From a virus (lineage: Duplodnaviria; Heunggongvirae; Uroviricota; Caudoviricetes), in the IMG/VR virus record IMGVR_UViG_2711768074_000015: a stretch of DNA of 10,477 nucleotides. The stretch is one strand, 5' to 3'. How positions within the stretch are numbered: the first letter of the stretch is position 1; each line of letters opens with the position of its first letter. A program made the translations under genes and the position numbers. Under the pieces are notes generated by a model. The model made no database searches. It was given only the letters and a program-made list of their open reading frames with translations, and was not told the origin of the DNA. Positions 135 to 10,477 of the stretch are shown here, in pieces.

Positions 135-1442
135 TTGATCATTGACTACGATAATGAAGATGTCCAAAGTTATTGGGAAGACGTTGTATTACCGAACTTA
201 AATGATAATGGTAATAAAGCTCTCACAAGAGATGAAACAATAGCCTATATTAAAGACAGTAAGCCTTGTAGAAGAATTAAAAGATTAATACATGATGATG
301 CTGTGTTGGAGGAACAAAAGGATAAAAACTTCATTGCAAAAATGATTGCAGAATATGCTGTGTCTAGAAATGCAATTATTTCTAGCAACACATCTGGCAA
401 TGTCATTCGGGGTGATGAAAGCGGAGTAAAATGGATTCAATGTGGTAATATCTTTGTCTCCCTATTTCATAAGGTTCAAGATGATCATGAAAACGATGGA
501 GATAGGATTTGGCAAACTCTCAATGATTCTCTCATTGAATGGAAACCATCTTATTATCAGTTAATAAAATCTGAAATTCAGAATGCAATCGAAGCTGAGG
601 CTTTATCTTTTGTAAATCATTTGGCTAACGATCATTACGGTCAAGCTGCGTGGTTAAATGAGATATTAAAATCAGACTCGCCTGATATTAGATGTAGAAA
701 TATTGACTTTGTATTTGGTAATTTATCAGAAGAGCTTTATCAAAGACTTAAAAATAATAATACGCTGGATGAATTTATCAAAAGTGTTTTTGATAGCTAT
801 TCAAATGAATACGCTAACAGCGGAGTTGCTGCATTGCTCCAATATTGCTCTTCAAAAATGGATCTGCCATCAAATAATGATACTTATCACGAAATGTATC
901 ATGCTTTAAATATGAATTTGTCTTCAAAGAATTTTGAAGATGGTCATATTTCTACTGGCACTATTTTCTTTGATACAGAGTCGAACAAATGGTATTTATG
1001 TGTATCTGCGGCATGTGATTTGGTTCCTACTCAGGGTAACGACCCTCACCATGTAAGATTAAGTCCGCACAGGCTCATTAAAGTTCTGGAGCTTTTTAAC
1101 GCCAGTCAGAGTAAAGCATTGCCATTTGCTGAACATTCGAAATATATATATGTAATGCATAAAAATCAAAGAAAATATCTCTCTATTTTCGAAGGGGATA
1201 AAACGCTTCCTGTTGTTGATTATATGGTGGTGTTGAATCATGGAACAACAGTTGATGGCGAAGAAAAAAATATTATTTCTGCCGTGTTTTTAAGTAATAT
1301 GGATGGCAACGTGCAAAATGTTCCTGTCCGACTCAAACTTAAATCTCAACTGAGAACTGGTTATGCAGAAAGATATCAGGCTATAGCGTCTCAGTATAGC
1401 TCAAGGATTGGTGTGGATTATGTATCAATGATGCTACCATAA
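135..1442 (+). CDS. Hypothetical protein, AT-rich cargo gene, function unknown
   Basis: Uninterrupted 435-codon ORF in a markedly AT-rich block. There is an in-frame stop at 75..77, only a TTG at 135 with no clear Shine-Dalgarno, and the first in-frame ATG is about 70 codons in (near nt 342), so the 5' end is uncertain. I recognise no family signature. There is a weak D-x13-EEK pattern near the C-terminus (VVDYMVVLNHGTTVDGEEK) that could be read as nuclease-like, but this is speculative. Confidence 0.5.
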   Translation: MIIDYDNEDVQSYWEDVVLPNLNDNGNKALTRDETIAYIKDSKPCRRIKRLIHDDAVLEEQKDKNFIAKMIAEYAVSRNAIISSNTSGNVIRGDESGVKWIQCGNIFVSLFHKVQDDHENDGDRIWQTLNDSLIEWKPSYYQLIKSEIQNAIEAEALSFVNHLANDHYGQAAWLNEILKSDSPDIRCRNIDFVFGNLSEELYQRLKNNNTLDEFIKSVFDSYSNEYANSGVAALLQYCSSKMDLPSNNDTYHEMYHALNMNLSSKNFEDGHISTGTIFFDTESNKWYLCVSAACDLVPTQGNDPHHVRLSPHRLIKVLELFNASQSKALPFAEHSKYIYVMHKNQRKYLSIFEGDKTLPVVDYMVVLNHGTTVDGEEKNIISAVFLSNMDGNVQNVPVRLKLKSQLRTGYAERYQAIASQYSSRIGVDYVSMMLP

Positions 1443-1513: not shown

Positions 1514-1930
1514 TTATTTTTGTTTAAGTCTTCTAAGCTTCATGCATTCTAATGAGAATAATAATAGAGTTGTGCTGTATATAAAGCCAGAGTTAGTTAA
1601 TAACTTTAAATTTAATGCTTCAGGATTTTCACTGAGAAAGTGAAAGGCATAAACTAAGTATACAGCTAAAGTAGCCGTTCCAATTGTTGGTCCAATATCG
1701 CCTTGATCATGAGGTTCAAGGTTTACATTGAACTTGAAGATTAGCCATTCAAATCCCCAAGTAAAAAAAACAACTAATATCATGGCTGCGAATAATTTCG
1801 CGATGTTATCTGCTGATGGATTCATCAGAACAGATTGTTTCTGAAAAAATTCACAAAGTGAGAGTCCGAAAAAAATAAAAAAAAGTGGTCTGGAACTAAA
1901 TTTTTCAAAAACTTTGAATAGGGTTTCCAT
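1514..1930 (-). CDS. Small integral membrane protein (3-4 predicted TM helices), function unknown
   Basis: ATG at 1930 with AAGG upstream. The 138-aa product is dominated by hydrophobic stretches (LFFIFFGLSLCEFF, AAMILVVFFTWGFEWLIF, ATLAVYLVYAFHF, FIYSTTLLLFSL). AT-rich like the neighbouring 435-aa gene, and convergent with it. Confidence 0.5.
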   Translation of the reverse strand: METLFKVFEKFSSRPLFFIFFGLSLCEFFQKQSVLMNPSADNIAKLFAAMILVVFFTWGFEWLIFKFNVNLEPHDQGDIGPTIGTATLAVYLVYAFHFLSENPEALNLKLLTNSGFIYSTTLLLFSLECMKLRRLKQK

Positions 1931-1968: not shown

Positions 1969-3198
1969 TTAGGCTACCAGAGCATTTGATCTTTGAGCTT
2001 GAACGTAATCACTCCACCATTGCATCAAACTCTGTCGCTCTATCAGATATTCTGCACGATTGTATGCTGCGATAATTTCATCTTTTTTCGAGTGGGCAAG
2101 CGCTGCCTCAAGAACTTCAGCTCTGAATTTACCAGACTCCTCTGCCGCTGTTCGTGCAATAGAACGCATACCGTGAGCTACAAGCTCGCCTCCGAACCCC
2201 ATTCGGATGATAGCTGCGTTGGCTGTTTGTTCATGCATATGATTAAGAGGCGCTTTTATGCTGGGGAAAACCCATTCTCTATGCCCACTTATTGATTTCA
2301 TTAATTCAAGGATGCGCAAAGCTTCTTTACTCAAAGGAACTTTGTGAAGCTTTTTCATTTTCATGAAATCAGCAGGAATGTTCCAAATGCTGTTGGTTGT
2401 ATCAATATCAGACCACCTTGCGCGAACGGCTTCACCCGGACGAACCCATGTCAACAATTGCCATTCAATTAGCATACGTGTTTCCAACCGGATTGACGCA
2501 TTCGTCAAAGATTCCATAAACCTTGGCAATTCGCTTGGGGGAAGGGCAGGCATATTTTGCTTTTTTGGTTTACTGAATCTTTGACCAAGGTTGTCAGCCG
2601 GGTTGAACTCAATAAGTTCTTCAGTAGCTGCCCACCGGAAGATTTCATTCAGACGTGAAATGATACGGCGTAGAGTTTCCAATACGCCTCGTTGCTCAAT
2701 AGGATCAAGGTGTTGTTTTAAGAGCTTAGGTCGGATCTCATTGATAGGGACATTACCCAGACCGGGAAAGACATTTCTCTCTAAGCTGCGCCAGATGTCT
2801 GCTGCATGGTCTTGTGAGATACCTGATGTCTTTACCTTCTCATCTAACCATTTCCGCGCTACGGCTTGGAGAGTGTGCTCAGTAGCACTCTTTAATGCCT
2901 TCGCCTTATCGTTGTTATGGATTTGGGGATCAACACCATTTGCCAGAAAGGAGAGATATTCATCACGTAAGGCTCTGGCTCTTGCAAGGGTAAGGTGAGG
3001 ATATGTCCCAAGGCTCATTTTGGTTCTTTTCTTGCTCACTGGTACTGCATACCTGAAATACCAATTTTTCTTGCCTCCTTTCGCCAAAGGAGCGATTCGT
3101 AGAATCAGACCATCACCGTCAAACAAGTTGATTTCTTTATCGGCTGGCTTGGTGCTTTTGATTTCAGTGTCAGTGAGCTTCTTAGCGATTTTTGCCAT
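1969..3198 (-). CDS. int: Tyrosine recombinase / integrase, phage P4 (CP4-57 IntA-like) family
   Basis: The translation has the P4-type N-terminal arm-binding region (MAKIAKKLTDTEIKSTKP...FDGDGLILRI...WYFRY). The C-terminal catalytic region is HGMRSIARTAAEE ... AHSKKDEIIAAYNRAEYLIERQSLMQWWSDYV, colinear with P4 Int as I remember it (catalytic Tyr in the AYNR-type motif). I chose ATG at 3198 (GAGG 7-12 nt upstream; product starts MAKIAKK) over the ORF-track start at 3240, which has no Shine-Dalgarno. Confidence 0.9.
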   Translation of the reverse strand: MAKIAKKLTDTEIKSTKPADKEINLFDGDGLILRIAPLAKGGKKNWYFRYAVPVSKKRTKMSLGTYPHLTLARARALRDEYLSFLANGVDPQIHNNDKAKALKSATEHTLQAVARKWLDEKVKTSGISQDHAADIWRSLERNVFPGLGNVPINEIRPKLLKQHLDPIEQRGVLETLRRIISRLNEIFRWAATEELIEFNPADNLGQRFSKPKKQNMPALPPSELPRFMESLTNASIRLETRMLIEWQLLTWVRPGEAVRARWSDIDTTNSIWNIPADFMKMKKLHKVPLSKEALRILELMKSISGHREWVFPSIKAPLNHMHEQTANAAIIRMGFGGELVAHGMRSIARTAAEESGKFRAEVLEAALAHSKKDEIIAAYNRAEYLIERQSLMQWWSDYVQAQRSNALVA

Positions 3199-3201
3199 TT
3201 T

Positions 3202-3238
3202 GGGACCCTCGGTTTTTGGACCCTTCTTAGTGGGTCCC
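3202..3238. promoter_or_regulatory. Three copies of a 7-bp GGGACCC-type motif at 15-bp spacing in the leader of the P4-like integrase
   Basis: GGGACCC at 3202..3208, TGGACCC at 3217..3223 and GGGTCCC (the inverse complement) at 3232..3238, immediately upstream of the integrase ATG at 3198. The alternative reading is a repetitive GP(T/K)K peptide if translation started at 3240. Confidence 0.3.
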
Positions 3239-3294
3239 ATTCAGGGTGCCATAACTCGTAGTTCTCAGCAATTCTCACTGGACGACAATAGACG

Positions 3295-3328
3295 TAAAAA
3301 AGCCCGCAGAGCTTGTGCTGTGTGGGCT
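3295..3328 (-). terminator. Terminator-like hairpin followed by a U-run on the minus strand, about 36 nt downstream of the tmRNA 3' end
   Basis: Minus-strand arms GCCCACACAGC / GCTCTGCGGGC (about 9 of 11 pairs, 4-nt loop) followed by TTTTTT (the plus-strand A-run at 3296..3301). The position fits the native terminator of ssrA. Confidence 0.45.
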
Positions 3329-3363
3329 TAGTAGACTTCATTGAACTTCAAACAACTAAAAAG

Positions 3364-3400
3364 TGGTGGAGCTGGCGGGAGTTGAACCCGTATCCGAAAA
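3364..3400 (-). ncRNA. ssrA: 3'-terminal fragment of tmRNA (ssrA), a partial copy acting as an att-site junction, not an intact gene
   Basis: The minus strand reads UUUUCGGAUACGGGUUCAACUCCCGCCAGCUCCACCA. The last 27 nt match the T-arm, acceptor 3' strand and CCA end of E. coli tmRNA as I remember it (...GGACGCGGGUUCAACUCCCGCCAGCUCCACCA). The 3 differences lie at the 5' side and one would break the T-stem. The sequence upstream of the fragment (3401 onward) does not resemble the tmRNA body. Confidence 0.75.
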
Positions 3401-3448
3401 ATTCTTAACCAATTGAATATTAATGATTTTTCTAATTTAAAATACCTC

Positions 3449-3470
3449 ACGTGCATTTTACGTGCATATT
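3449..3470 (+). repeat. Tandem direct repeat ACGTGCATTTT / ACGTGCATATT (11-bp period)
   Basis: Read directly: ACGTGCAT at 3449..3456 and again at 3460..3467, about 50 bp from the att junction core and just downstream of promoter-like TTGAAT / TAAAAT elements (3412..3442). Candidate arm-type integrase sites or an operator. Confidence 0.5.
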
Positions 3471-3656
3471 GTAGTACCTCTAACGTCCTGATTCTGTCCA
3501 ACATTTTGAAGTGTTTAGGCGCCACTGGGGCGGTGATTAGCGCTGTTTTGTGCTGTTCATAGCACTTCAAGACTATTCAATTCAGAGCAATCGTTGAAGA
3601 ATTACCCGTAAGGTAATATCATACTATTTAGGTAACTGCGGTTATCACCATCAAGG

Positions 3657-3733: not shown

Positions 3734-4075
3734 ATGAGAACAGTAGCGAGAAGATCGATACAGACGATTGAGCGTCGGACTCAACTCGTCAGTTCTTTTG
3801 TTGACTCAAACACAGCAAACGAGTTCTTCGTGAGAAGACTGAGTGATCGTGTCTCCCCGGCACGTCAGCTGTTTATTGTGACATTGAACAATGAGGTTCG
3901 TGACGGTGACGTGATCCCGTTCGCTGAGATCGCCATGAACAAAGAAAAATTGCGCTATGTTGTGAAGCCAGCAGATCAGTATCCTCAGTATGTAAGCAGT
4001 AATCTGCTGAAGAAAATTGAAGCGGCAATTGCTCTATACATGCAGAAGAACTACAGGGAAATTAACTACCATTAA
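3734..4075 (+). CDS. Hypothetical protein (113 aa), first gene of a two-gene cargo operon
   Basis: ATG at 3734 with GAGGAG 6 nt upstream. The next gene follows 11 nt downstream. I recognise no family signature. Confidence 0.6.
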   Translation: MRTVARRSIQTIERRTQLVSSFVDSNTANEFFVRRLSDRVSPARQLFIVTLNNEVRDGDVIPFAEIAMNKEKLRYVVKPADQYPQYVSSNLLKKIEAAIALYMQKNYREINYH

Positions 4076-4086
4076 AAGGTTGCTGA

Positions 4087-4854
4087 ATGGCTCCTGCGTT
4101 AATACCTTCATATAACAAGGACTTGAACATTACGCCATTTGGCGAAAAACGTCTTATTGAGTCATTCTATTTTTTCACTGCCGAGGCTGGCTTACTGAGG
4201 GCTGATGAGTACATTGTCAGTTCTGGTGAGTTTCAGTACTACTTGGATGTGTATCAACTGGGATGTTCCACCGACGACTTTTTTTTAGACTATGGCAGTG
4301 ACCTTCTTGATTCGAAGGTTCCAATGCAGGATCTGGTCAATACCCTCTTGGGTCTTGATATGGTAGACGATAACAAAACGATAAGAATAGGTCGTATACA
4401 GTTCAACGACTTTAATTTTATCGAAGAGAACGGTCAGATGATGACCGGAAAGCAAGTGAAAAGCGCTGTTATCGCACAGGATTTCCAATCAGCAGGTTTG
4501 GCGCGTGAGATCTATAAAATGCTTGCGCGAAAGCATGAGTTTCTCATCTGCGATAACATTCAAAGTATTGCCGGTGGTGCTCTTTGGGCTAGTAGCATCA
4601 TTCGAATTGCCGAGGTACGGATCTACAATTCACGCACGAAGAAATTTATGGACATACTTGGTCCAGGTGCGCGTGGCGTTTCAGGTACTTTGCCATGGAG
4701 TGCGAATGATCTGTCTGTAGATGAGATTGTTCGCTGGGGTCGTGCGTATGATGATGAAAACTGTTGTCGTCACATTGTACATGTTATCTGTAAGGACCGA
4801 CTCATTGACGATCAATTTCATGATTATGTTTCGATAGGTGGCGCGACAGAATAA
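4087..4854 (+). CDS. Hypothetical protein (255 aa), second gene of the cargo operon
   Basis: ATG at 4087 with AAGG upstream, and a terminator immediately after the stop. The segment SAVIAQDFQSAGLAREIYKML loosely resembles the Q/R-x-x-G-x-G/A motif of GNAT acyltransferases, but this is a weak pattern match, not a call. Confidence 0.6.
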   Translation: MAPALIPSYNKDLNITPFGEKRLIESFYFFTAEAGLLRADEYIVSSGEFQYYLDVYQLGCSTDDFFLDYGSDLLDSKVPMQDLVNTLLGLDMVDDNKTIRIGRIQFNDFNFIEENGQMMTGKQVKSAVIAQDFQSAGLAREIYKMLARKHEFLICDNIQSIAGGALWASSIIRIAEVRIYNSRTKKFMDILGPGARGVSGTLPWSANDLSVDEIVRWGRAYDDENCCRHIVHVICKDRLIDDQFHDYVSIGGATE

Positions 4855-4859
4855 CCATC

Positions 4860-4888
4860 AAAAAGACCCGGCATTTGCCGGGTTTTTT
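4860..4888. terminator. Bidirectional intrinsic terminator between the convergent cargo operon and the phage integrase
   Basis: Stem CCCGGC (4867..4872), loop ATTT, GCCGGG (4877..4882), flanked by AAAAAGA upstream and TTTTTT downstream, so it gives a U-tail on both strands. Confidence 0.7.
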
Positions 4889-4895
4889 CTTCAAA

Positions 4896-6074
4896 TCACT
4901 TCTTCATTCCAGATTCCATTGCGGTTTTCCCGTCGTATTCAGCCAGGTATTTACCGTAATTGCGGAACAGCATTTCCGGCCCCTTATGCCCCATCTGCCC
5001 GGCAAGCCAGAAAAGGTTTACACCCTGGCTAATGTGTCTGGTGGCGAATGTGTGGCGCGTCTGGTACGGGTTACGGTAGCGCACACCAGCTTTTTTCAGG
5101 GTCGGCACCCATGCTTTTTTACGGATAGCGTCGGCGTTCGTCCAGGGATCTCCCGTTTTCGGATCGCTGAATATGAACTCACTTTTCATAAAGGTGTATT
5201 GCTTCTGCGCCTGCAGGGCCGCCAGCGCCTCACTGTTCAGCTCCACCTTACGGGTACCGGCTTTTGTCTTGGTGCCTTTAAGTACCCCTACGACACTGGC
5301 CGCCTGTATGTGCGCTGTATTACCTATAAAGTCGATATCGGTCCAACGTAATGCGCATAGCTCAGAGCTGCGTAGCCCTGTATTGAAGGCGAAGCGGAAC
5401 AGATTCTGCCATTCCTGATACTTGCAGTGCTGATATATGGCACTGGTTTCCGCAGGCGCAAACGGATCAACTTCGTAATCGTCGGCGTTCGGTTTACTGT
5501 CGACCACGTGATACCGGCTGGCGCTGACAAGAGTTACCGGGTTAATAGTCAACAGGCCATCAGTTACAGCCTCATCAATGGCGCTGCGCAGAAATGACAG
5601 GTTATTCCTGATTGTTTTCAGCTTAGTTTTTCGGCTGGCTATCCAATTTTTTAGTACCGCAGGCGTCAATTCTGTTACATGTAGTTTATGTAGTTCTGAT
5701 AGTGCTGATAGACATTTTTCGTAACCGCCAATGGTTGACGGCGACAGATTGCGGTTCATGCAAATTTTCAGGTATTCATCAAGATAGGACTTAATATTTT
5801 GGGTTTTCTTTACTACACCGAATAACTCCAGTTTTTTGGAACTGGGGAAATATTTCGCATATTCAAACGTTCCGCTGGCGATCTGATTTTGTATCTCCCC
5901 TAGCAGGCGCTCAGCATATTTAATACCACGTGTATTTGCCTCAAGCCGAGACAGGGGCTCCCTGCAAAGAACCCCTTTATATGTGAAAGTGATAACTAGT
6001 GTTGAAGCAGTTTTATGCTTACGAATAGTTACTCCTCTTGGCAGAGATAATAATCCTTGTTCTTTCTTGCCCAT
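4896..6074 (-). CDS. int: Phage tyrosine integrase (lambdoid type, with N-terminal arm-binding domain)
   Basis: 392 aa. ATG at 6074 with AGAGG upstream. The C-terminus YQTRHTFATRHISQGVNLFWLAGQMGHKGPEMLFRNYGKY has the R-H-x-x-R ... Y catalytic pattern of tyrosine recombinases. The N-terminal block GVTIRKHKTASTLVITFTYKGV is typical of an arm-binding domain. The 5' end overlaps the 3' end of the upstream xis-like gene. Confidence 0.9.
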   Translation of the reverse strand: MGKKEQGLLSLPRGVTIRKHKTASTLVITFTYKGVLCREPLSRLEANTRGIKYAERLLGEIQNQIASGTFEYAKYFPSSKKLELFGVVKKTQNIKSYLDEYLKICMNRNLSPSTIGGYEKCLSALSELHKLHVTELTPAVLKNWIASRKTKLKTIRNNLSFLRSAIDEAVTDGLLTINPVTLVSASRYHVVDSKPNADDYEVDPFAPAETSAIYQHCKYQEWQNLFRFAFNTGLRSSELCALRWTDIDFIGNTAHIQAASVVGVLKGTKTKAGTRKVELNSEALAALQAQKQYTFMKSEFIFSDPKTGDPWTNADAIRKKAWVPTLKKAGVRYRNPYQTRHTFATRHISQGVNLFWLAGQMGHKGPEMLFRNYGKYLAEYDGKTAMESGMKK

Positions 6075-6762: not shown

Positions 6763-7331
6763 TCATTCCGGATGCTCCTGAGCCACATTGAAATCGCCAT
6801 GATCACGACAAGGCATCACAACAAATTCAGGATTGCCATACATTGAGTTGATGATGGAATCAAACTGAATTCTGACCGCTTGCCCGTCACCGGAGGAACG
6901 TAACTGGACGGGAATAAATTTACGCTCACGACCAAACATCTTCTCTGGATAACTCAGGTAACCCGCCTGGATCACCGGGTGTGTACAGAGGTCAAATTTT
7001 TTCGGAATGATGCGTTCCAAATCCGGAAAACAACCGTCCACCAATTTAATGCCGGTAATGGACAGCCGGCGCTGAAACTGGTCGCGATGAACAGGATCGG
7101 CTCTTTACTAAAAATCAGCTCTGTCGTTTCGGCTTTGGCCGGGACGCCACCTTCGAACTGGACAATGATGTTTTTCTTCGTCCGGATGCCGTGAGTCATG
7201 CGCAGTGCTACGAAACCATTGGTTGCCTCAATATGTTTTGGCGTGATGTGAAGACCGTTCAGGTAATAACGAACGTCGTTTTTAGCAGCGCACACCAGAG
7301 CGGCGCGAATAAGTTTTGACTGGATGATCAT
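6763..7331 (-). pseudogene. Beta-sliding-clamp (DnaN) domain II-III-like protein lacking domain I, reading frame interrupted by a frameshift near 7045..7075
   Basis: The two overlapping minus-strand ORFs (6972..7331 and 6763..7044) are colinear with E. coli DnaN as I remember it: AAKNDVRYYLNGLHI...ATNGFVAL vs AHQDVRYYLNGMLF...ATDGHRLA; ILFIATS/ELIFSK vs FIFTSK; then in the second frame KLVDGCFPDLERIIPKKFD vs KLVDGRFPDYRRVLPKNPD and EFVVMPCR vs AYVVMPMRL. The frame switch falls where the plus strand reads GCCGG-TAATGGACA-GCCGGC. The start ATG at 7331 has a GGAGG Shine-Dalgarno and overlaps the upstream stop (ATGA). Confidence 0.55.
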
Positions 7332-8077
7332 GCTTTATCCTCCCATCCGATTACCTGAAAAAGCCCCATCTTCGGGTGATACCAGCGTGTGCCGCGTGGT
7401 TCAGCCTCTGACATCATTTGGTGGAACGCCGCCATAAATGTCTCAAGCTCGACGACAGCCCTGCGAGACAACAGACCGTCCGGAGTCATAAATTCGTGCG
7501 TGTCGGTAGGGATGTGGTAGGCGTTGACCAGATTCCGACACTTGGCGTCACTCATTCCGCTTTTGGCTACCACCTGGCGGTAACCGACATATCCGGTGCG
7601 CATTGTGCCGCGTTTGATGTTCTCCACAGCTTTGGTGACCGTTTCGATCTTCTCTTCAACATGACTCAGGCGCTTCTGCTGGCGAACGGCATCGGCGGCC
7701 ATTGCAGCGATCATCTCCATTTCCGTCAGCGGCGCGTGAGTTCGGAAATAGCTGTTAACCAGTTCGCGCTGAACCTGCCATGCAAGAGCATCGTTAAAAG
7801 GCTTCGTCAACATCAGGTAACCAGACTCGAAAAGAATGATCCCTTTGGCAGTTCGCGCGGCAAAGGCATCAGAAAGTGACTCCGTACGTATTACGTCCGC
7901 AGTCATTTCAAGAAAATCCACCCCTTCGATAAAGTGAGAACGGTTGCGGTTAAACGCAGCACGGGCGGTACCTTCCGGGCGCTGGTGGACGTCATCAATT
8001 ATTGCAAATGTCACAACACGCTGACCGCGATATTCGATTACCGGAAACTGTTTGTTGTTGATGGTTACAATATTCAT
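7328..8077 (-). CDS. KilA-N / ORF6N (Bro-N-like) domain protein, antirepressor-like
   Basis: ATG at 8077 with GGAG 5 nt upstream (the ORF-track start at 8152 is less likely). The N-terminus MNIVTINNKQFPVIEYRGQRVVTFAIIDDVHQRPEGTARAAFNRNRSHFIEGVDFLE has the shape of phage KilA-N/ORF6N DNA-binding domains. This is a family-level call from memory. Confidence 0.6.
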   Translation of the reverse strand: MNIVTINNKQFPVIEYRGQRVVTFAIIDDVHQRPEGTARAAFNRNRSHFIEGVDFLEMTADVIRTESLSDAFAARTAKGIILFESGYLMLTKPFNDALAWQVQRELVNSYFRTHAPLTEMEMIAAMAADAVRQQKRLSHVEEKIETVTKAVENIKRGTMRTGYVGYRQVVAKSGMSDAKCRNLVNAYHIPTDTHEFMTPDGLLSRRAVVELETFMAAFHQMMSEAEPRGTRWYHPKMGLFQVIGWEDKA

Positions 8078-8120
8078 TTTTATCTCCAGACAGCCCGGCG
8101 TGTAATACCGGGCATATGTA

Positions 8121-8948
8121 TTACTTAACCTGAATAAATGGTGTGTTGGCACCGCTGGTCATGTATTGCGGCAGTGTACCGTTCCACTTGTTGATGGCTT
8201 CCAGCTCCATAACACCGGGGTTCTGGCGCAGAGCTTCACCGCGTAAACGAATAGCATCGGCTTCGGCCTGGGCTTTTGTGCGAATCGCATCTGCCTGTCC
8301 GGCAGCTTCCGCGCGCAACATGTTGGCTTCCGCTTCGCGCTGTTTTACTTCCTGCTCGCGTTGCAGGGTTTTCTGGTTCGCCGTGACTTTGGCATTAATG
8401 CTGTCGATAACAGTAGGTGGGTACTCCGGCTTACCCACATATGAGAGGCTCATTACCTGAATACCGATGGGCGTCATTTCTTCCTGAATGTCTTTAAGAG
8501 CTGCATCCAGCAGCTCAGACTTGCCGCCGTCGATAAATTTGTCGGTGGTCATTTTGCTGGCCAGTCGGTTGAGTGCGTCGGCTATCTTCTGGCGCAGGTC
8601 GGTGTCGGTAATGTCGTCCACGCCTTTGCGGTAGGTCTGAAAGACTGTGGTAACTTTGGATGGATCAACTTTGTAGGCCACGCCGATGTGATAGCCGATG
8701 GTTGTACCGTCACTCATCTGGAAACTGAATGGATCATCGTAGGTCTTCATCTGCTTAAAGGTCGGGAAGATGTAAACCTCAGTGTTCCATCCCGTCCAGT
8801 AGCGCCCAACACCGACCACTTCACCGACGCCTTTATCGTCGCCCAGTTTGTTTACTTTGATGCCCACATTACCAGGCTCAACGCGATCGCAACCGACAAG
8901 GCCAATGGTCGGCAGAACAAGGGCTAAAGCAAAAAGTAATTTTTTCAT
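8121..8948 (-). CDS. SPFH / band-7 (prohibitin-like) domain lipoprotein, predicted inner-membrane anchored
   Basis: Signal peptide with lipobox MKKLLFALALVLPTIGLVGC followed by Asp at +2 (the inner-membrane retention rule in E. coli). SPFH-like core, then a C-terminal Ala/Glu/Gln/Arg-rich coiled-coil region (QREQEVKQREAEANMLRAEAAGQADAIRTKAQAEADAIRLRGEALRQNP). The start ATG overlaps the stop of the upstream small TM gene (ATGA). Confidence 0.8.
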   Translation of the reverse strand: MKKLLFALALVLPTIGLVGCDRVEPGNVGIKVNKLGDDKGVGEVVGVGRYWTGWNTEVYIFPTFKQMKTYDDPFSFQMSDGTTIGYHIGVAYKVDPSKVTTVFQTYRKGVDDITDTDLRQKIADALNRLASKMTTDKFIDGGKSELLDAALKDIQEEMTPIGIQVMSLSYVGKPEYPPTVIDSINAKVTANQKTLQREQEVKQREAEANMLRAEAAGQADAIRTKAQAEADAIRLRGEALRQNPGVMELEAINKWNGTLPQYMTSGANTPFIQVK

Positions 8949-9133
8949 CTTTTATCCTTAGAAAAAGAAAGACCCTTATAAATGGCATAAATGCAGGGCG
9001 GGGTCAGACACGCCAGAGCAAAGCCAGAAATCACTGCTACCGTATCCTTCATTGATATGAGGGCCGGAACGATTAATCCGTAAATACATGTGATAATTGC
9101 CAGTGATATAACTATTCTGAAATAAATGTTCAT
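8945..9133 (-). CDS. Small two-TM membrane protein (62 aa), translationally coupled to the SPFH lipoprotein
   Basis: ATG at 9133 with AGGAGG at ideal spacing. Two hydrophobic segments (IVISLAIITCIYGLIVPALI and VISGFALACLTPPCIYAIY). Its TGA overlaps the ATG of the SPFH gene. Confidence 0.6.
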   Translation of the reverse strand: MNIYFRIVISLAIITCIYGLIVPALISMKDTVAVISGFALACLTPPCIYAIYKGLSFSKDKR

Positions 9134-9193
9134 GGTCCTCCTGATGTATTCGGCTTGCCTTATTTAATTGCGTCATGGTTAATTTCGTTTACG

Positions 9194-9586
9194 TCAGAAT
9201 GGTTTTGTTGCCATCAGTTCGTAATATCCGGCGCTCCATGTGTCATATTTTCTGAACCATTTTTCTGTATACTGTTTCCTGGCGATGAGTCTGCGCAGTC
9301 GTCTGATTGTTCGCTGGTGTGCGCGGGTATACTCTGTGGTTGATTCTCCACGTTTCCATATCTCATTCCTGTTGAAGATAAAACGCTTGTCAGGATAGCG
9401 TTGTCGGAATCCTGAACGTTCAAAAGCGCGGGTGGTCATAAAGAATGCCAGGTAACGAATTGCCGTTTTTCGGGTGAGGCATTTTTTTGTTCTTCCGTGG
9501 CGTGTTACAAAAAATAACGGGCCGACGGGTGTATCATGTTTCTGTAATGCCTGGTCAATGGTGCTGGCGGTGCGGTTGTCGATCAT
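9194..9586 (-). CDS. Hypothetical basic protein (130 aa)
   Basis: ATG at 9586 with GGAG upstream. Arg/Lys-rich C-terminal half. No family recognised. Confidence 0.5.
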   Translation of the reverse strand: MIDNRTASTIDQALQKHDTPVGPLFFVTRHGRTKKCLTRKTAIRYLAFFMTTRAFERSGFRQRYPDKRFIFNRNEIWKRGESTTEYTRAHQRTIRRLRRLIARKQYTEKWFRKYDTWSAGYYELMATKPF

Positions 9587-9772
9587 TTCTTTATTTCTCC
9601 CGAATAACGTTCATGACTCATTACTTCCCAGTTCCGGCCGTCGTCTTTCGATAACAGCCGCCAGCGACGGTTAACCTTCAGACTGAGATATCCGGTGCGC
9701 TGTATCCGATGCGGAAATATCCGTCGGCATCGGTACAACAACAGGACCTGCAATGCCTGCCGGTGGATCCGC

Positions 9773-9988
9773 TCAGGAATGCGTGTTGCTGTTAATGCCA
9801 CCGGTTTCCTCCTGAGCAGGTGCTGTTATCTGATACCCCGCTCTTTCTGCCAGCCGTATGAATGTATCCATGCTGGCAATCAGCTCGCCATCGCGGACTT
9901 TGCAGACACCTGTGACTTGGCCATTTTCAATTGTCATAACGATCTGCACTTTTTCGTGCACAACAGATACAGGGGATAAATTAGCCAT
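9773..9988 (-). CDS. Hypothetical small protein (71 aa)
   Basis: ATG at 9988 overlaps the stop of the upstream gene (TGATG), indicating translational coupling. No family recognised. Confidence 0.5.
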   Translation of the reverse strand: MANLSPVSVVHEKVQIVMTIENGQVTGVCKVRDGELIASMDTFIRLAERAGYQITAPAQEETGGINSNTHS

Positions 9989-10347
9989 CAGTTAATTCCT
10001 CCGCTGATATATTTTTCTTTCGCGTAATCAATAATCTCTTGAAAAAGGTTGTCTATAATTAACTTTCCGGTTTCAGTCAGGTATTCAGTATGTTGATTAA
10101 TCCCGATAGCATTCTGGTATGCAGTGTGGATTTCGGTTTCACCCTCCACCCGGCCCAATTCACCACGGGTAATACCTTCGAAGCGTAACAGCAACTGGTT
10201 TATAAACTGTTCAGTTATTTCTATGGTCGTAATGTTCCCATCAGGAAGGTCAACAATAAGCAGATTACCACCTGTTTTACGTTTTATTCGATGGAGTGCC
10301 GCAACAGCTATACGGCGACGATATGTATTAATGGGTTCATGTGTCAT
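9988..10347 (-). CDS. Hypothetical protein (119 aa)
   Basis: ATG at 10347. The ORF fills the gap to the next gene with a coupled stop/start. No family recognised. Confidence 0.5.
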   Translation of the reverse strand: MTHEPINTYRRRIAVAALHRIKRKTGGNLLIVDLPDGNITTIEITEQFINQLLLRFEGITRGELGRVEGETEIHTAYQNAIGINQHTEYLTETGKLIIDNLFQEIIDYAKEKYISGGIN

Positions 10348-10477
10348 TTGTTATTTCCCGTATGCTTTCCTGAGAAACGTAAGCGTGCAGCAAGAACCGT
10401 ATTGACGGGGATGTGTTATTCAGTCGGCAGTGCTACGCGCCAGGGGAGCAGTTCGCCGACCCGGTTTATCGGCCAGT

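Follow-up and report, generated by a model that had tools for sequence, protein, structure and literature searches.

A coupled SPFH lipoprotein and two-helix membrane protein in a prophage of the Caudoviricetes: a widespread phage pair with a possible role in lytic growth

What would a prophage do with a prohibitin-like lipoprotein and a very small membrane protein whose genes overlap? The question arises at positions 8121 to 9133 of a 10,477-nucleotide (nt) stretch of DNA from a tailed virus of the Caudoviricetes (IMG/VR virus record IMGVR_UViG_2711768074_000015); this whole stretch is called the window below. It was suggested in a sequence-only reading that such a membrane scaffold, having no obvious role in the phage life cycle, could act in superinfection exclusion or abortive infection. 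Our answer is different and is held tentatively, at somewhat less than an even chance: the pair would form an inner-membrane, periplasm-facing SPFH cage with a transmembrane (TM) partner, serving the lytic programme of the phage by capturing or reorganising a component of the host inner membrane. The two genes are already annotated, as "SPFH domain-containing protein" and "hypothetical protein". What is new here is the link between their two families, PHROG 200 and PHROG 1130, the natural fusions of the two proteins, and the case against a defence role in the lysogen. The features on which the argument draws are these.

8945..9133, minus strand: small gene encoding the 62-amino-acid (aa) two-TM partner (PHROG 1130), a predicted hairpin with both termini in the cytoplasm (N-in/C-in); from the listing of open reading frames (ORFs), the phrog_1130 match, hydropathy and the ratio of nonsynonymous to synonymous substitution rates (dN/dS)
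8121..8948, minus strand: SPFH/Band-7 lipoprotein gene, 275 aa (PHROG 200); from Pfam, PHROG, AlphaFold2 (AF2) and Foldseek
8945..8948, minus strand: ATGA stop/start overlap (translational coupling), read from the sequence
9137..9142, minus strand: Shine-Dalgarno sequence AGGAGG of the small gene, 3 bases before its ATG, read from the sequence
8955..8959, minus strand: Shine-Dalgarno sequence AAGGA of the SPFH gene, within the small gene and 6 bases before the ATG, read from the sequence
9134..9193, minus strand: intergenic gap of 60 nt on the 5' side of the pair; the upstream ORF stops at 9194, and a consensus scan finds no promoter-like site
8886..8948, minus strand: signal peptide and lipobox LVGC, with the Cys20 codon at 8889..8891 and that of Asp21, the predicted inner-membrane retention residue, at 8886..8888; from the sequence
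8325..8885, minus strand: SPFH (Band_7) domain, residues 22-208 (Pfam envelope), with beta-rich and alpha/beta subdomains in the AF2 model
8223..8417, minus strand: long Ala/Glu/Arg-rich helix, residues 178-242, corresponding to the wall-forming helix of SPFH cages; from DSSP, with a predicted local distance difference test score (pLDDT) of 77-96, and aligning with the coiled-coil helices of HflK and prohibitin
8169..8189, minus strand: C-terminal K-W-N-G-x-L-P motif, residues 254-260; from an alignment of 56 family sequences
9041..9067, minus strand: codons 23-31 of the small gene, PALISMKDT, with the motif P-x-L-[IV]-S-x-x-[ST/D], a predicted periplasmic turn between the helices; from an alignment of 30 partner sequences and the model of a fused relative

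The larger protein belongs to the SPFH superfamily and to PHROG 200. Residues 22-208 match Pfam Band_7 (PF01145) at E = 8e-31, with 107.9 bits against a cut-off of 23.6, and phrog_200 matches it at full length (residues 1-274; E = 9.7e-115). The AF2 model, a monomer built on 56 diverse relatives, has a mean pLDDT of 89.9 and a predicted template modelling score (pTM) of 0.72, and consists of a beta-rich N-terminal subdomain, an alpha/beta subdomain, the 65-residue helix 178-242, a short helix (244-254) and a low-confidence tail. When compared with the PDB by Foldseek, this model matched HflC/HflK (7vhq; E = 3e-13), prohibitin (8rrh), erlin (9vvj), stomatin (9z7u), flotillin (9bq2), the QmcA-YbbJ complex (8z5g) and the shoulder of the major vault protein, all at probability 1.00. 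The top three lie near 1e-13, and the cage-forming SPFH proteins covered the range from 1e-13 to 1e-8. The prohibitin-like domain and the long coiled-coil tail seen in the sequence-only reading are thus both borne out. HflK is also the best solved relative by sequence in the PDB (E = 2e-4). Within the tail, W255 and G257 are invariant and P260 is at least 90% conserved among 56 diverse family members, and the two invariant residues would fit a conserved assembly element.

Family membership at a finer level is more restricted. No NCBIfam model reached an equivalog-level score for this protein: TIGR01933, TIGR01932, NF008181 and NF008259 gave 18.6-25.4 bits against cut-offs of 134-660, and only the helix region aligned to the HflK/HflC equivalog models. 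By these scores, the protein is not an HflK or HflC equivalog. The label "serine protease" found in Stx2 phage and phiP27 records was also considered and is unsupported, since Band_7 was the only domain found and no protease domain was; the sole PHROG "protease" match is marginal (E = 9e-4) and lies over the helix. The label was probably carried over from stomatin operons associated with NfeD/ClpP. Several phage homologues are annotated as "prohibitin family protein".

The gene structure is that of a coupled pair. In the ATGA overlap, the start codon of the SPFH gene (ATG, 8948..8946) and the stop codon of the small gene (TGA, 8947..8945) are interlaced, and both Shine-Dalgarno sequences are strong, in agreement with the earlier claims on these points. 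The same 4-nt overlap is seen in phiP27, P88, Pylas and others. By the Nei-Gojobori method, with phiP27, another E. coli prophage and Pantoea as comparisons, dN/dS is 0.11-0.30 for the small ORF and 0.03-0.07 for the SPFH gene. These ratios indicate purifying selection on both ORFs and point to two selected coding sequences, of which the small one appears to be more loosely constrained.

The predicted location of the proteins depends on the lipobox and on charge. The SPFH protein begins MKKLLFALALVLPTIGLVGC-DR, with a basic n-region (MKK), a hydrophobic core and then L17-V18-G19-C20 followed by D21-R22. The Asp at position +2 after the lipobox Cys, from which retention in the inner membrane had been predicted, is therefore real, and Cys20 is at least 90% conserved in the 56-sequence family alignment. 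About 100 of 106 enterobacterial relatives with a recognisable lipobox keep C-D. Indeed, C-D-R is almost invariant amid signal peptides that vary, which argues that Asp is selected and that inner-membrane retention matters. The SPFH protein probably stays in the inner membrane via Asp21, and relatives whose SPFH body is tethered by TM helices seem to support this location independently.

The hydropathy scan confirms two hydrophobic segments in the small protein, split by SMKDT and followed by the basic tail KGLSFSKDKR. This tail, together with the basic linkers of the fused relatives described below, places both ends of the hairpin in the cytoplasm. With an N-in/C-in hairpin and a lipobox helix next to it, the SPFH body would be exported to the periplasm. 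The P-x-L-[IV]-S turn would then be the only periplasm-exposed part of the small protein, and it would be in the right compartment to meet the membrane-proximal SPFH subdomain.

The small protein matches phrog_1130 at full length (residues 1-61; E = 1.5e-23) and has no Pfam or NCBIfam match. It is a dedicated partner of the SPFH lipoprotein. A partner profile, built from an alignment of 30 diverse hairpins, free-standing and fused, matches within 1 kb and on the same strand at 105 of 112 SPFH loci, and has no further match among 12,705 ORFs (861 kb). As the 112 loci include many near-identical E. coli prophages and some sequences that trained the profile, these figures are more informative on specificity than on sensitivity. 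Two apparent exceptions to the co-occurrence were set aside, in which an IS1-like element lies between the small gene and the SPFH gene and explains the miss (locus L085, 3027..4828, from Shigella flexneri SFBU1023, and locus L086 from E. coli).

The hairpins share the consensus G-x-x-x-P-x-L-I-S-x-x-S-T, with P23 and S27 at least 90% conserved in the 30 sequences. They occur on lambdoid, P2-like, P1-like, N4-like, rV5-like and Burkholderia-phage backbones as well as in Xanthomonadales and Sutterella genomes. Examples are the N4-like Klebsiella phage Pylas, whose Pylas_028 is annotated "2 TMDs N in C in", the rV5-like phage 4MG, where gp235 sits one ORF further upstream, Burkholderia phage Maja, and prophage-like regions of Dyella, Luteibacter and Sutterella. 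A search of a 5.8-billion-protein set with the partner profile reached no further than enterobacterial, Burkholderia-phage and Turicimonas members, since a TM profile of 60 residues cannot reach significance in a set of such size. A viral scan with a 7-sequence alignment returned only near-identical E. coli prophages.

The partnership is also written in single polypeptides. A HMMER search of 1.84 billion cluster representatives gave 3,008 clusters at E <= 1e-3, of which 227 were at E <= 1e-30. At least 17 of the best 150 representatives (50%-identity clusters) are in-frame partner-SPFH fusions, in which the partner is an N-terminal extension and the layout is two-helix hairpin, positively charged linker, lipobox helix and SPFH body; these fused relatives came from the SPFH search and not from that with the partner profile. 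One fusion from a P1-like element of E. coli (P0002) was made by an indel in the overlap and was found in two independent samples. Its model (pTM 0.70 overall) has helices at 5-38 and 43-68 (pLDDT 85-92) with a turn between them, and an anchor helix at 74-89.

A different arrangement was seen in P0160, a metagenomic cluster representative that is an SPFH lipoprotein with a C-terminal hairpin of the partner type (VVPTLISSSAT). Although P0160 was outside the training set, the partner profile matches it at E = 4e-9. We do not take it for a true fusion, as its topology would be awkward; it probably reflects a reversed gene order or merged genes. The identification of the small protein as NfeD was also rejected: with 62 aa it has no OB-fold domain (PF01957) and no Pfam match, and hhalign of the partner family profile with E. 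coli YbbJ gave a probability of 27%, over the TM segments only.

The pair, moreover, occurs on unrelated backbones and is not unique to the window's prophage. By megablast, the region is present in 543 of 5,426 complete E. coli genomes, on chromosomes and about 200 plasmids, and also in phiP27, many Stx2 phages, the P2-like phage P88 and P1-like phages. In P88 the lipoprotein gene gp12 is preceded, with a 4-nt overlap, by gp11, a 67-aa "membrane protein"; phiP27 has a 62-aa ORF; and in P1-like RCS47 a 78-aa two-TM ORF overlaps the lipoprotein gene by 20 nt. In the last two the small gene is unannotated (phiP27 3304..3492; RCS47 4775..5011, in the coordinates of the fetched loci), and it is missing from several reference phage records. 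DNA similarity among the lambdoid, P2-like and P1-like copies is 86-92% and is limited to about codons 17-265 of the SPFH gene (window 8154..8900). No homology at the DNA level connects those backbones in the signal peptide, in the last ten codons or anywhere in the small gene, which places the mosaic boundary within the gene. Although the small proteins of P88, RCS47 and phiP27 are only 16-21% identical to that of the window, architecture and motif are kept.

On P1-like phage-plasmids, the pair is flanked by upl/plp on one side and the tRNA-ban region on the other (RCS47 3967..5011; in the fused type, locus L111 3001..4044). Phage P1 carries tciABC at this spot.

Homologues of the SPFH protein were found by tblastn in 423 phage records, and the pair is not confined to temperate elements. 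The carriers include N4-like Pylas, vB_EamP-S6 and Pokken, G7C-like phages, rV5-like 4MG and SSE121, LUZ24-like TL, Ab22 and Clew-1, BcepF1-like phages, phiEa21-4, phiCbK-like phages, jumbo phages, Lak megaphages, a crAss-like virus and haloarchaeal tailed viruses; giant viruses have structural relatives as well. Many of these groups (N4-like, rV5-like, LUZ24-like, phiCbK-like, jumbo, crAss-like and haloarchaeal) we take to be virulent. The partner gene is present as well in Pylas, 4MG and Maja, which are classed as virulent. In the virulent genomes examined, the SPFH gene stands among early or nucleotide-metabolism genes, such as those for dUTPase (Pylas), pyrophosphohydrolase and exonuclease (4MG) or RNA ligase (phiCbK), and not in lysis cassettes. 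The presence of the pair in related prophages, which the sequence-only reading had proposed to survey, thus extends from phiP27, Stx2 phages, P88 and P1-like phages to virulent ones.

When would the pair be expressed? E. coli E110019 has a prophage to which the window is almost identical, and in it the pair lies inside an unbroken leftward string of genes with overlapping or closely spaced ends, running from the integrase-proximal block to a LexA-family repressor with divergent regulators. The order in phiP27 is the same (int, xis, L03, L04, L05, which is the SPFH protein, and the repressor region). Such a gene string between the integrase-proximal block and the repressor indicates the early-left operon of a lambdoid prophage. 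The earlier suggestion that the 60-nt gap could hold a promoter for the pair found no support. The gap exists, and a consensus scan of 7200..10477 found no sigma-70-like promoter in it; the best hexamers found by eye have 3-4 of 6 matches at the wrong spacing, and the sole promoter-like site of the scanned region is at 10347..10318. No terminator-like site was found on the minus strand around the pair in the same region. The simplest reading is that the pair is co-transcribed with the early-left genes and that the prophage repressor should silence it.

Taken together, these data suggest the following mechanism. The 275-aa protein would be exported, lipid-modified at Cys20 and, owing to Asp21, retained in the inner membrane. 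Its SPFH domain, its long helix and its C-terminal tail would all lie on the periplasmic side. There the protein would most likely assemble into a membrane ring or cage, as every solved SPFH protein does. The 62-aa hairpin, with both ends in the cytoplasm, would be made in roughly equal amounts through ATGA coupling and would probably lie under or within the cage, contacting it by the P-x-L-[IV]-S turn. Being read with the leftward early operon, the pair would be made on induction or infection and not in the quiescent lysogen, and it would serve lytic growth by reorganising the host inner membrane locally.

The most likely specific mechanism would be the caging or displacement of a host inner-membrane protein. 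The SPFH1, SPFH3 and SPFH4/prohibitin families have been linked to FtsH-type proteases, and SPFH3 and probably SPFH4 face the periplasm (PMC2636767). FtsH is the leading candidate for a client because SPFH families that face the periplasm or the intermembrane space (HflK/C, prohibitins) act on FtsH-type proteases. The identity of any client is nevertheless speculative, and for FtsH in particular, proposed by analogy, we consider the case doubtful.

Several points weigh against this lytic-growth reading. Arg at position +3 (R22) may weaken the retention signal of Asp at +2. The structure models are of monomers, so that both the cage and the contact between the two proteins are matters of reasoning. 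The partner profile found no match in LUZ24-like TL, phiCbK, three Cytophagales genomes and one Clostridium metagenome-assembled genome; upstream of the SPFH gene, TL has a different single-TM protein and phiCbK a 116-aa multi-TM protein. The HflK/HflC models of NCBIfam score the SPFH protein at 23-25 bits against cut-offs of 134-159, and with scores so far below the cut-off FtsH binding is not transferable by homology. The promoter scan relied on the sigma-70 consensus, which a weak or unusual promoter, and hence expression in the lysogen, could escape. In this regard, a prophage HflK/C-like protein of Pasteurella multocida was reported to be made by the wild-type lysogen (PMC9872710). Finally, no experimental study on the function of any family member was found in the literature, so that the role is read from anatomy and distribution. 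The reason for an SPFH gene in phage genomes "remains unclear" to the authors of one study (PMC13239085).

A first alternative is that the cage stabilises the inner membrane and the proton-motive force against holins, spanins and injected proteins, and so delays premature lysis or collapse. SPFH proteins have been tied to membrane repair and stress tolerance (PMC8581546; PMC10434171), and the SPFH lipoprotein of a Vi01-like phage was found by mass spectrometry in phage preparations and is therefore made during infection (PMC10892097). A benefit of such a generic kind would fit the many unrelated lytic phages that carry the gene. All of this support is indirect, and no Psp-like or lysis genes adjoin the SPFH gene at the loci examined. 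A bacterial comparison is YdjI, the SPFH protein of Bacillus subtilis, which tethers PspA. On balance, we judge envelope protection unlikely to be the function of the pair.

Superinfection exclusion or abortive infection comes next. Here, the pair would block incoming DNA or kill infected cells, acting in the lysogen or else at an early stage of infection by its own phage, like T4 Imm and Sp. These proteins, HK97 gp15 and P22 SieA resemble the pair only in location, as small phage inner-membrane proteins; we know of no relation in sequence or fold, nor of an SPFH domain in any of them. Both proteins of the pair are predicted in the inner membrane, the site of DNA entry, and their patchy, mosaic spread over unrelated temperate backbones, with DNA similarity limited to the SPFH body, is typical of accessory cargo. 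Exclusion during infection would go well with early expression, and in the Vi01-like phage PhiSH19 the SPFH gene adjoins an annotated superinfection exclusion gene (PMC3220722). However, no PADLOC-DB 2.0 family matched the pair or its eight neighbours at E <= 0.01 (5,027 models). In line with the sequence-only reading, no named system matches the pair, with neither a PADLOC match nor a functional study to be found.

The operon, in which no promoter of the pair's own was detected, should be silenced by the repressor of the prophage. Homologues are widespread, reaching phages that we take to be virulent as well as archaeal and giant viruses. Some lysogens have a broken SPFH gene, disrupted by IS1 or by an internal deletion; the latter left E. 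coli 2011C-4315 (locus L110, 2529..2859) with a frameshifted SPFH pseudogene and an intact small ORF. A cage would also cover only a small patch of membrane and might be a poor block to entry. The wide distribution among phages, the lack of an own promoter or terminator and the lack of a matching defence model make a lysogen exclusion or abortive role less likely than one in lytic growth. Of the original argument from a scaffold to exclusion, the structural part thus stands, and the functional part is weakened by the 423 phage records and the position in an early operon. We consider the defence interpretation unsupported and exclusion or abortive infection improbable.

It is also conceivable that the phage protein mimics HflK/C and alters the degradation of CII/CIII-type regulators by FtsH, thereby setting the frequency of lysogeny. 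In phage lambda, the gene of the FtsH inhibitor, cIII, belongs to the leftward early operon, which is where the pair sits, and the fold and the predicted periplasmic orientation are those of HflK/C. Lysogeny control has been raised as a speculation for the phage SPFH gene in genome papers (PMC4936722; PMC10269572). Against it, many carriers belong to groups that we take to be virulent, with no lysogeny decision to tune, and the SPFH protein does not score as an HflK/HflC equivalog, which leaves this possibility with little probability.

TLR2 activation is a general property of triacylated lipoproteins. Very improbable is a lysogenic-conversion lipoprotein that would be released in outer-membrane vesicles and stimulate Toll-like receptors (TLR) 1/2 of the animal host like PM0222 of P. 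multocida, a prophage HflK/C-like protein of 25-35 kDa that is reported to be present in lysogen vesicles and to stimulate TLR1/2, and whose deletion reportedly attenuates virulence in mice (PMC9872710): carriers do include Stx phages and many human and animal E. coli isolates, but the likeness to PM0222 is by description, Asp at +2 predicts inner-membrane retention instead of vesicle export, and carriers among environmental, archaeal and plant-pathogen phages do not fit a role in animals.

Returning to the cage with its TM partner, the closest known system is HflK/HflC of E. coli (SPFH3), which forms an FtsH-enclosing cage (PDB 7vhp, 7vhq, 7wi3 and 9cz2) and gives the best structural and sequence matches in the PDB. 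The SPFH fold, the long helix and the C-terminal tail are shared, as is, by prediction here, an inner-membrane anchor with the bulk of the protein in the periplasm. However, HflK and HflC are a pair of proteins of 334-419 aa with N-terminal TM helices, whereas the phage has a single gene for a 275-aa protein with a lipid anchor; identity is about 16-20%, and the equivalog models are missed by more than 100 bits. The bacterial prohibitin-like group SPFH4 (Hinderhofer et al., 2009; PMC2636767) is alike in being encoded by a single gene, in its predicted periplasmic orientation and in having no recorded NfeD partner. That paper names no lipoprotein anchor, phages or small two-TM partner for SPFH4, beside which the phage protein is set by description.

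The stomatin/flotillin-NfeD operons (QmcA-YbbJ, YqiJK, YuaFG) are also similar in that an SPFH gene is coupled to the gene of a small membrane protein. The QmcA-YbbJ complex has been solved (PDB 8z5g), and qmcA and ybbJ likewise overlap by 4 nt. The partner there is an NfeD protein with an OB-fold, unlike the 62-aa phage hairpin, and in the phage the partner gene comes first. QmcA faces the cytoplasm (PMC2636767), in contrast to the predicted periplasmic orientation and lipid anchor of the phage protein, an orientation common to HflK/C, mitochondrial prohibitins and probably bacterial prohibitins. The 2009 classification found no partner for the HflK/C and prohibitin-like groups (PMC2636767). 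It is tempting to see the hairpin as a new class of partner, dedicated to prohibitin-like SPFH proteins that face the periplasm and taking the functional place of NfeD for them. The pair would then be a minimal and self-sufficient system of cage and anchor, a general device for host takeover with which phages of many families, both temperate and virulent, would capture a host inner-membrane machine such as FtsH early in infection. As a whole, we regard this extension as rather unlikely.

The pair consists of direct members of PHROG 200 ("lipoprotein") and PHROG 1130 ("membrane protein", moron category), exemplified by phiP27 L05, P88 gp12/gp11 and Pylas_029/028. Both are annotation bins that carry no function, and the database leaves them unlinked. 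This work adds no defence system; it describes a widespread phage module whose function is not known experimentally. SPFH cages (HflK/C, prohibitin, stomatin, flotillin, erlin) are structurally well described, and their effect on the enclosed clients is debated. Here is a minimal version, one SPFH gene and one 62-aa partner, sometimes in a single chain, present in hundreds of phages, whose need for it, if any, would be confined to one infection cycle. A virulent phage with two such small genes may offer a tractable model and could reveal a host membrane function that phages need to have controlled.

Other features of the window were observed in passing. It holds two integrase genes (1969..3240 and 4896..6074), which suggests elements integrated in tandem. 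Beside the first are genes for a 435-aa protein (135..1442; RefSeq "response regulator receiver domain") and a DUF4760 membrane protein (1514..1930), neither of which has a PADLOC, NCBIfam or tRNA match. The overlapping ORFs 6972..7331 and 6763..7044 (minus strand) look like one frameshifted gene, the first of them matching phrog_3007. The equivalent of 6763..7331 is a frameshifted pseudogene in RefSeq for E110019 and a "beta clamp domain-containing protein" in another strain, and the frameshift points to decay of the prophage. A 72-aa ORF (9583..9801, minus strand; RefSeq "ParE family toxin-like protein") and the overlapping upstream 71-aa ORF of phrog_340 (9773..9988, minus strand) may be a toxin-antitoxin pair in the early-left operon, situated two genes upstream of the SPFH pair. 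On the other side, an ORF6N anti-repressor-like gene (minus strand) has 32 nt in common with the 3' end of the SPFH gene when read from a GTG start at 8152; RefSeq places its start instead at the ATG at 8077, leaving a spacer of 43 nt.

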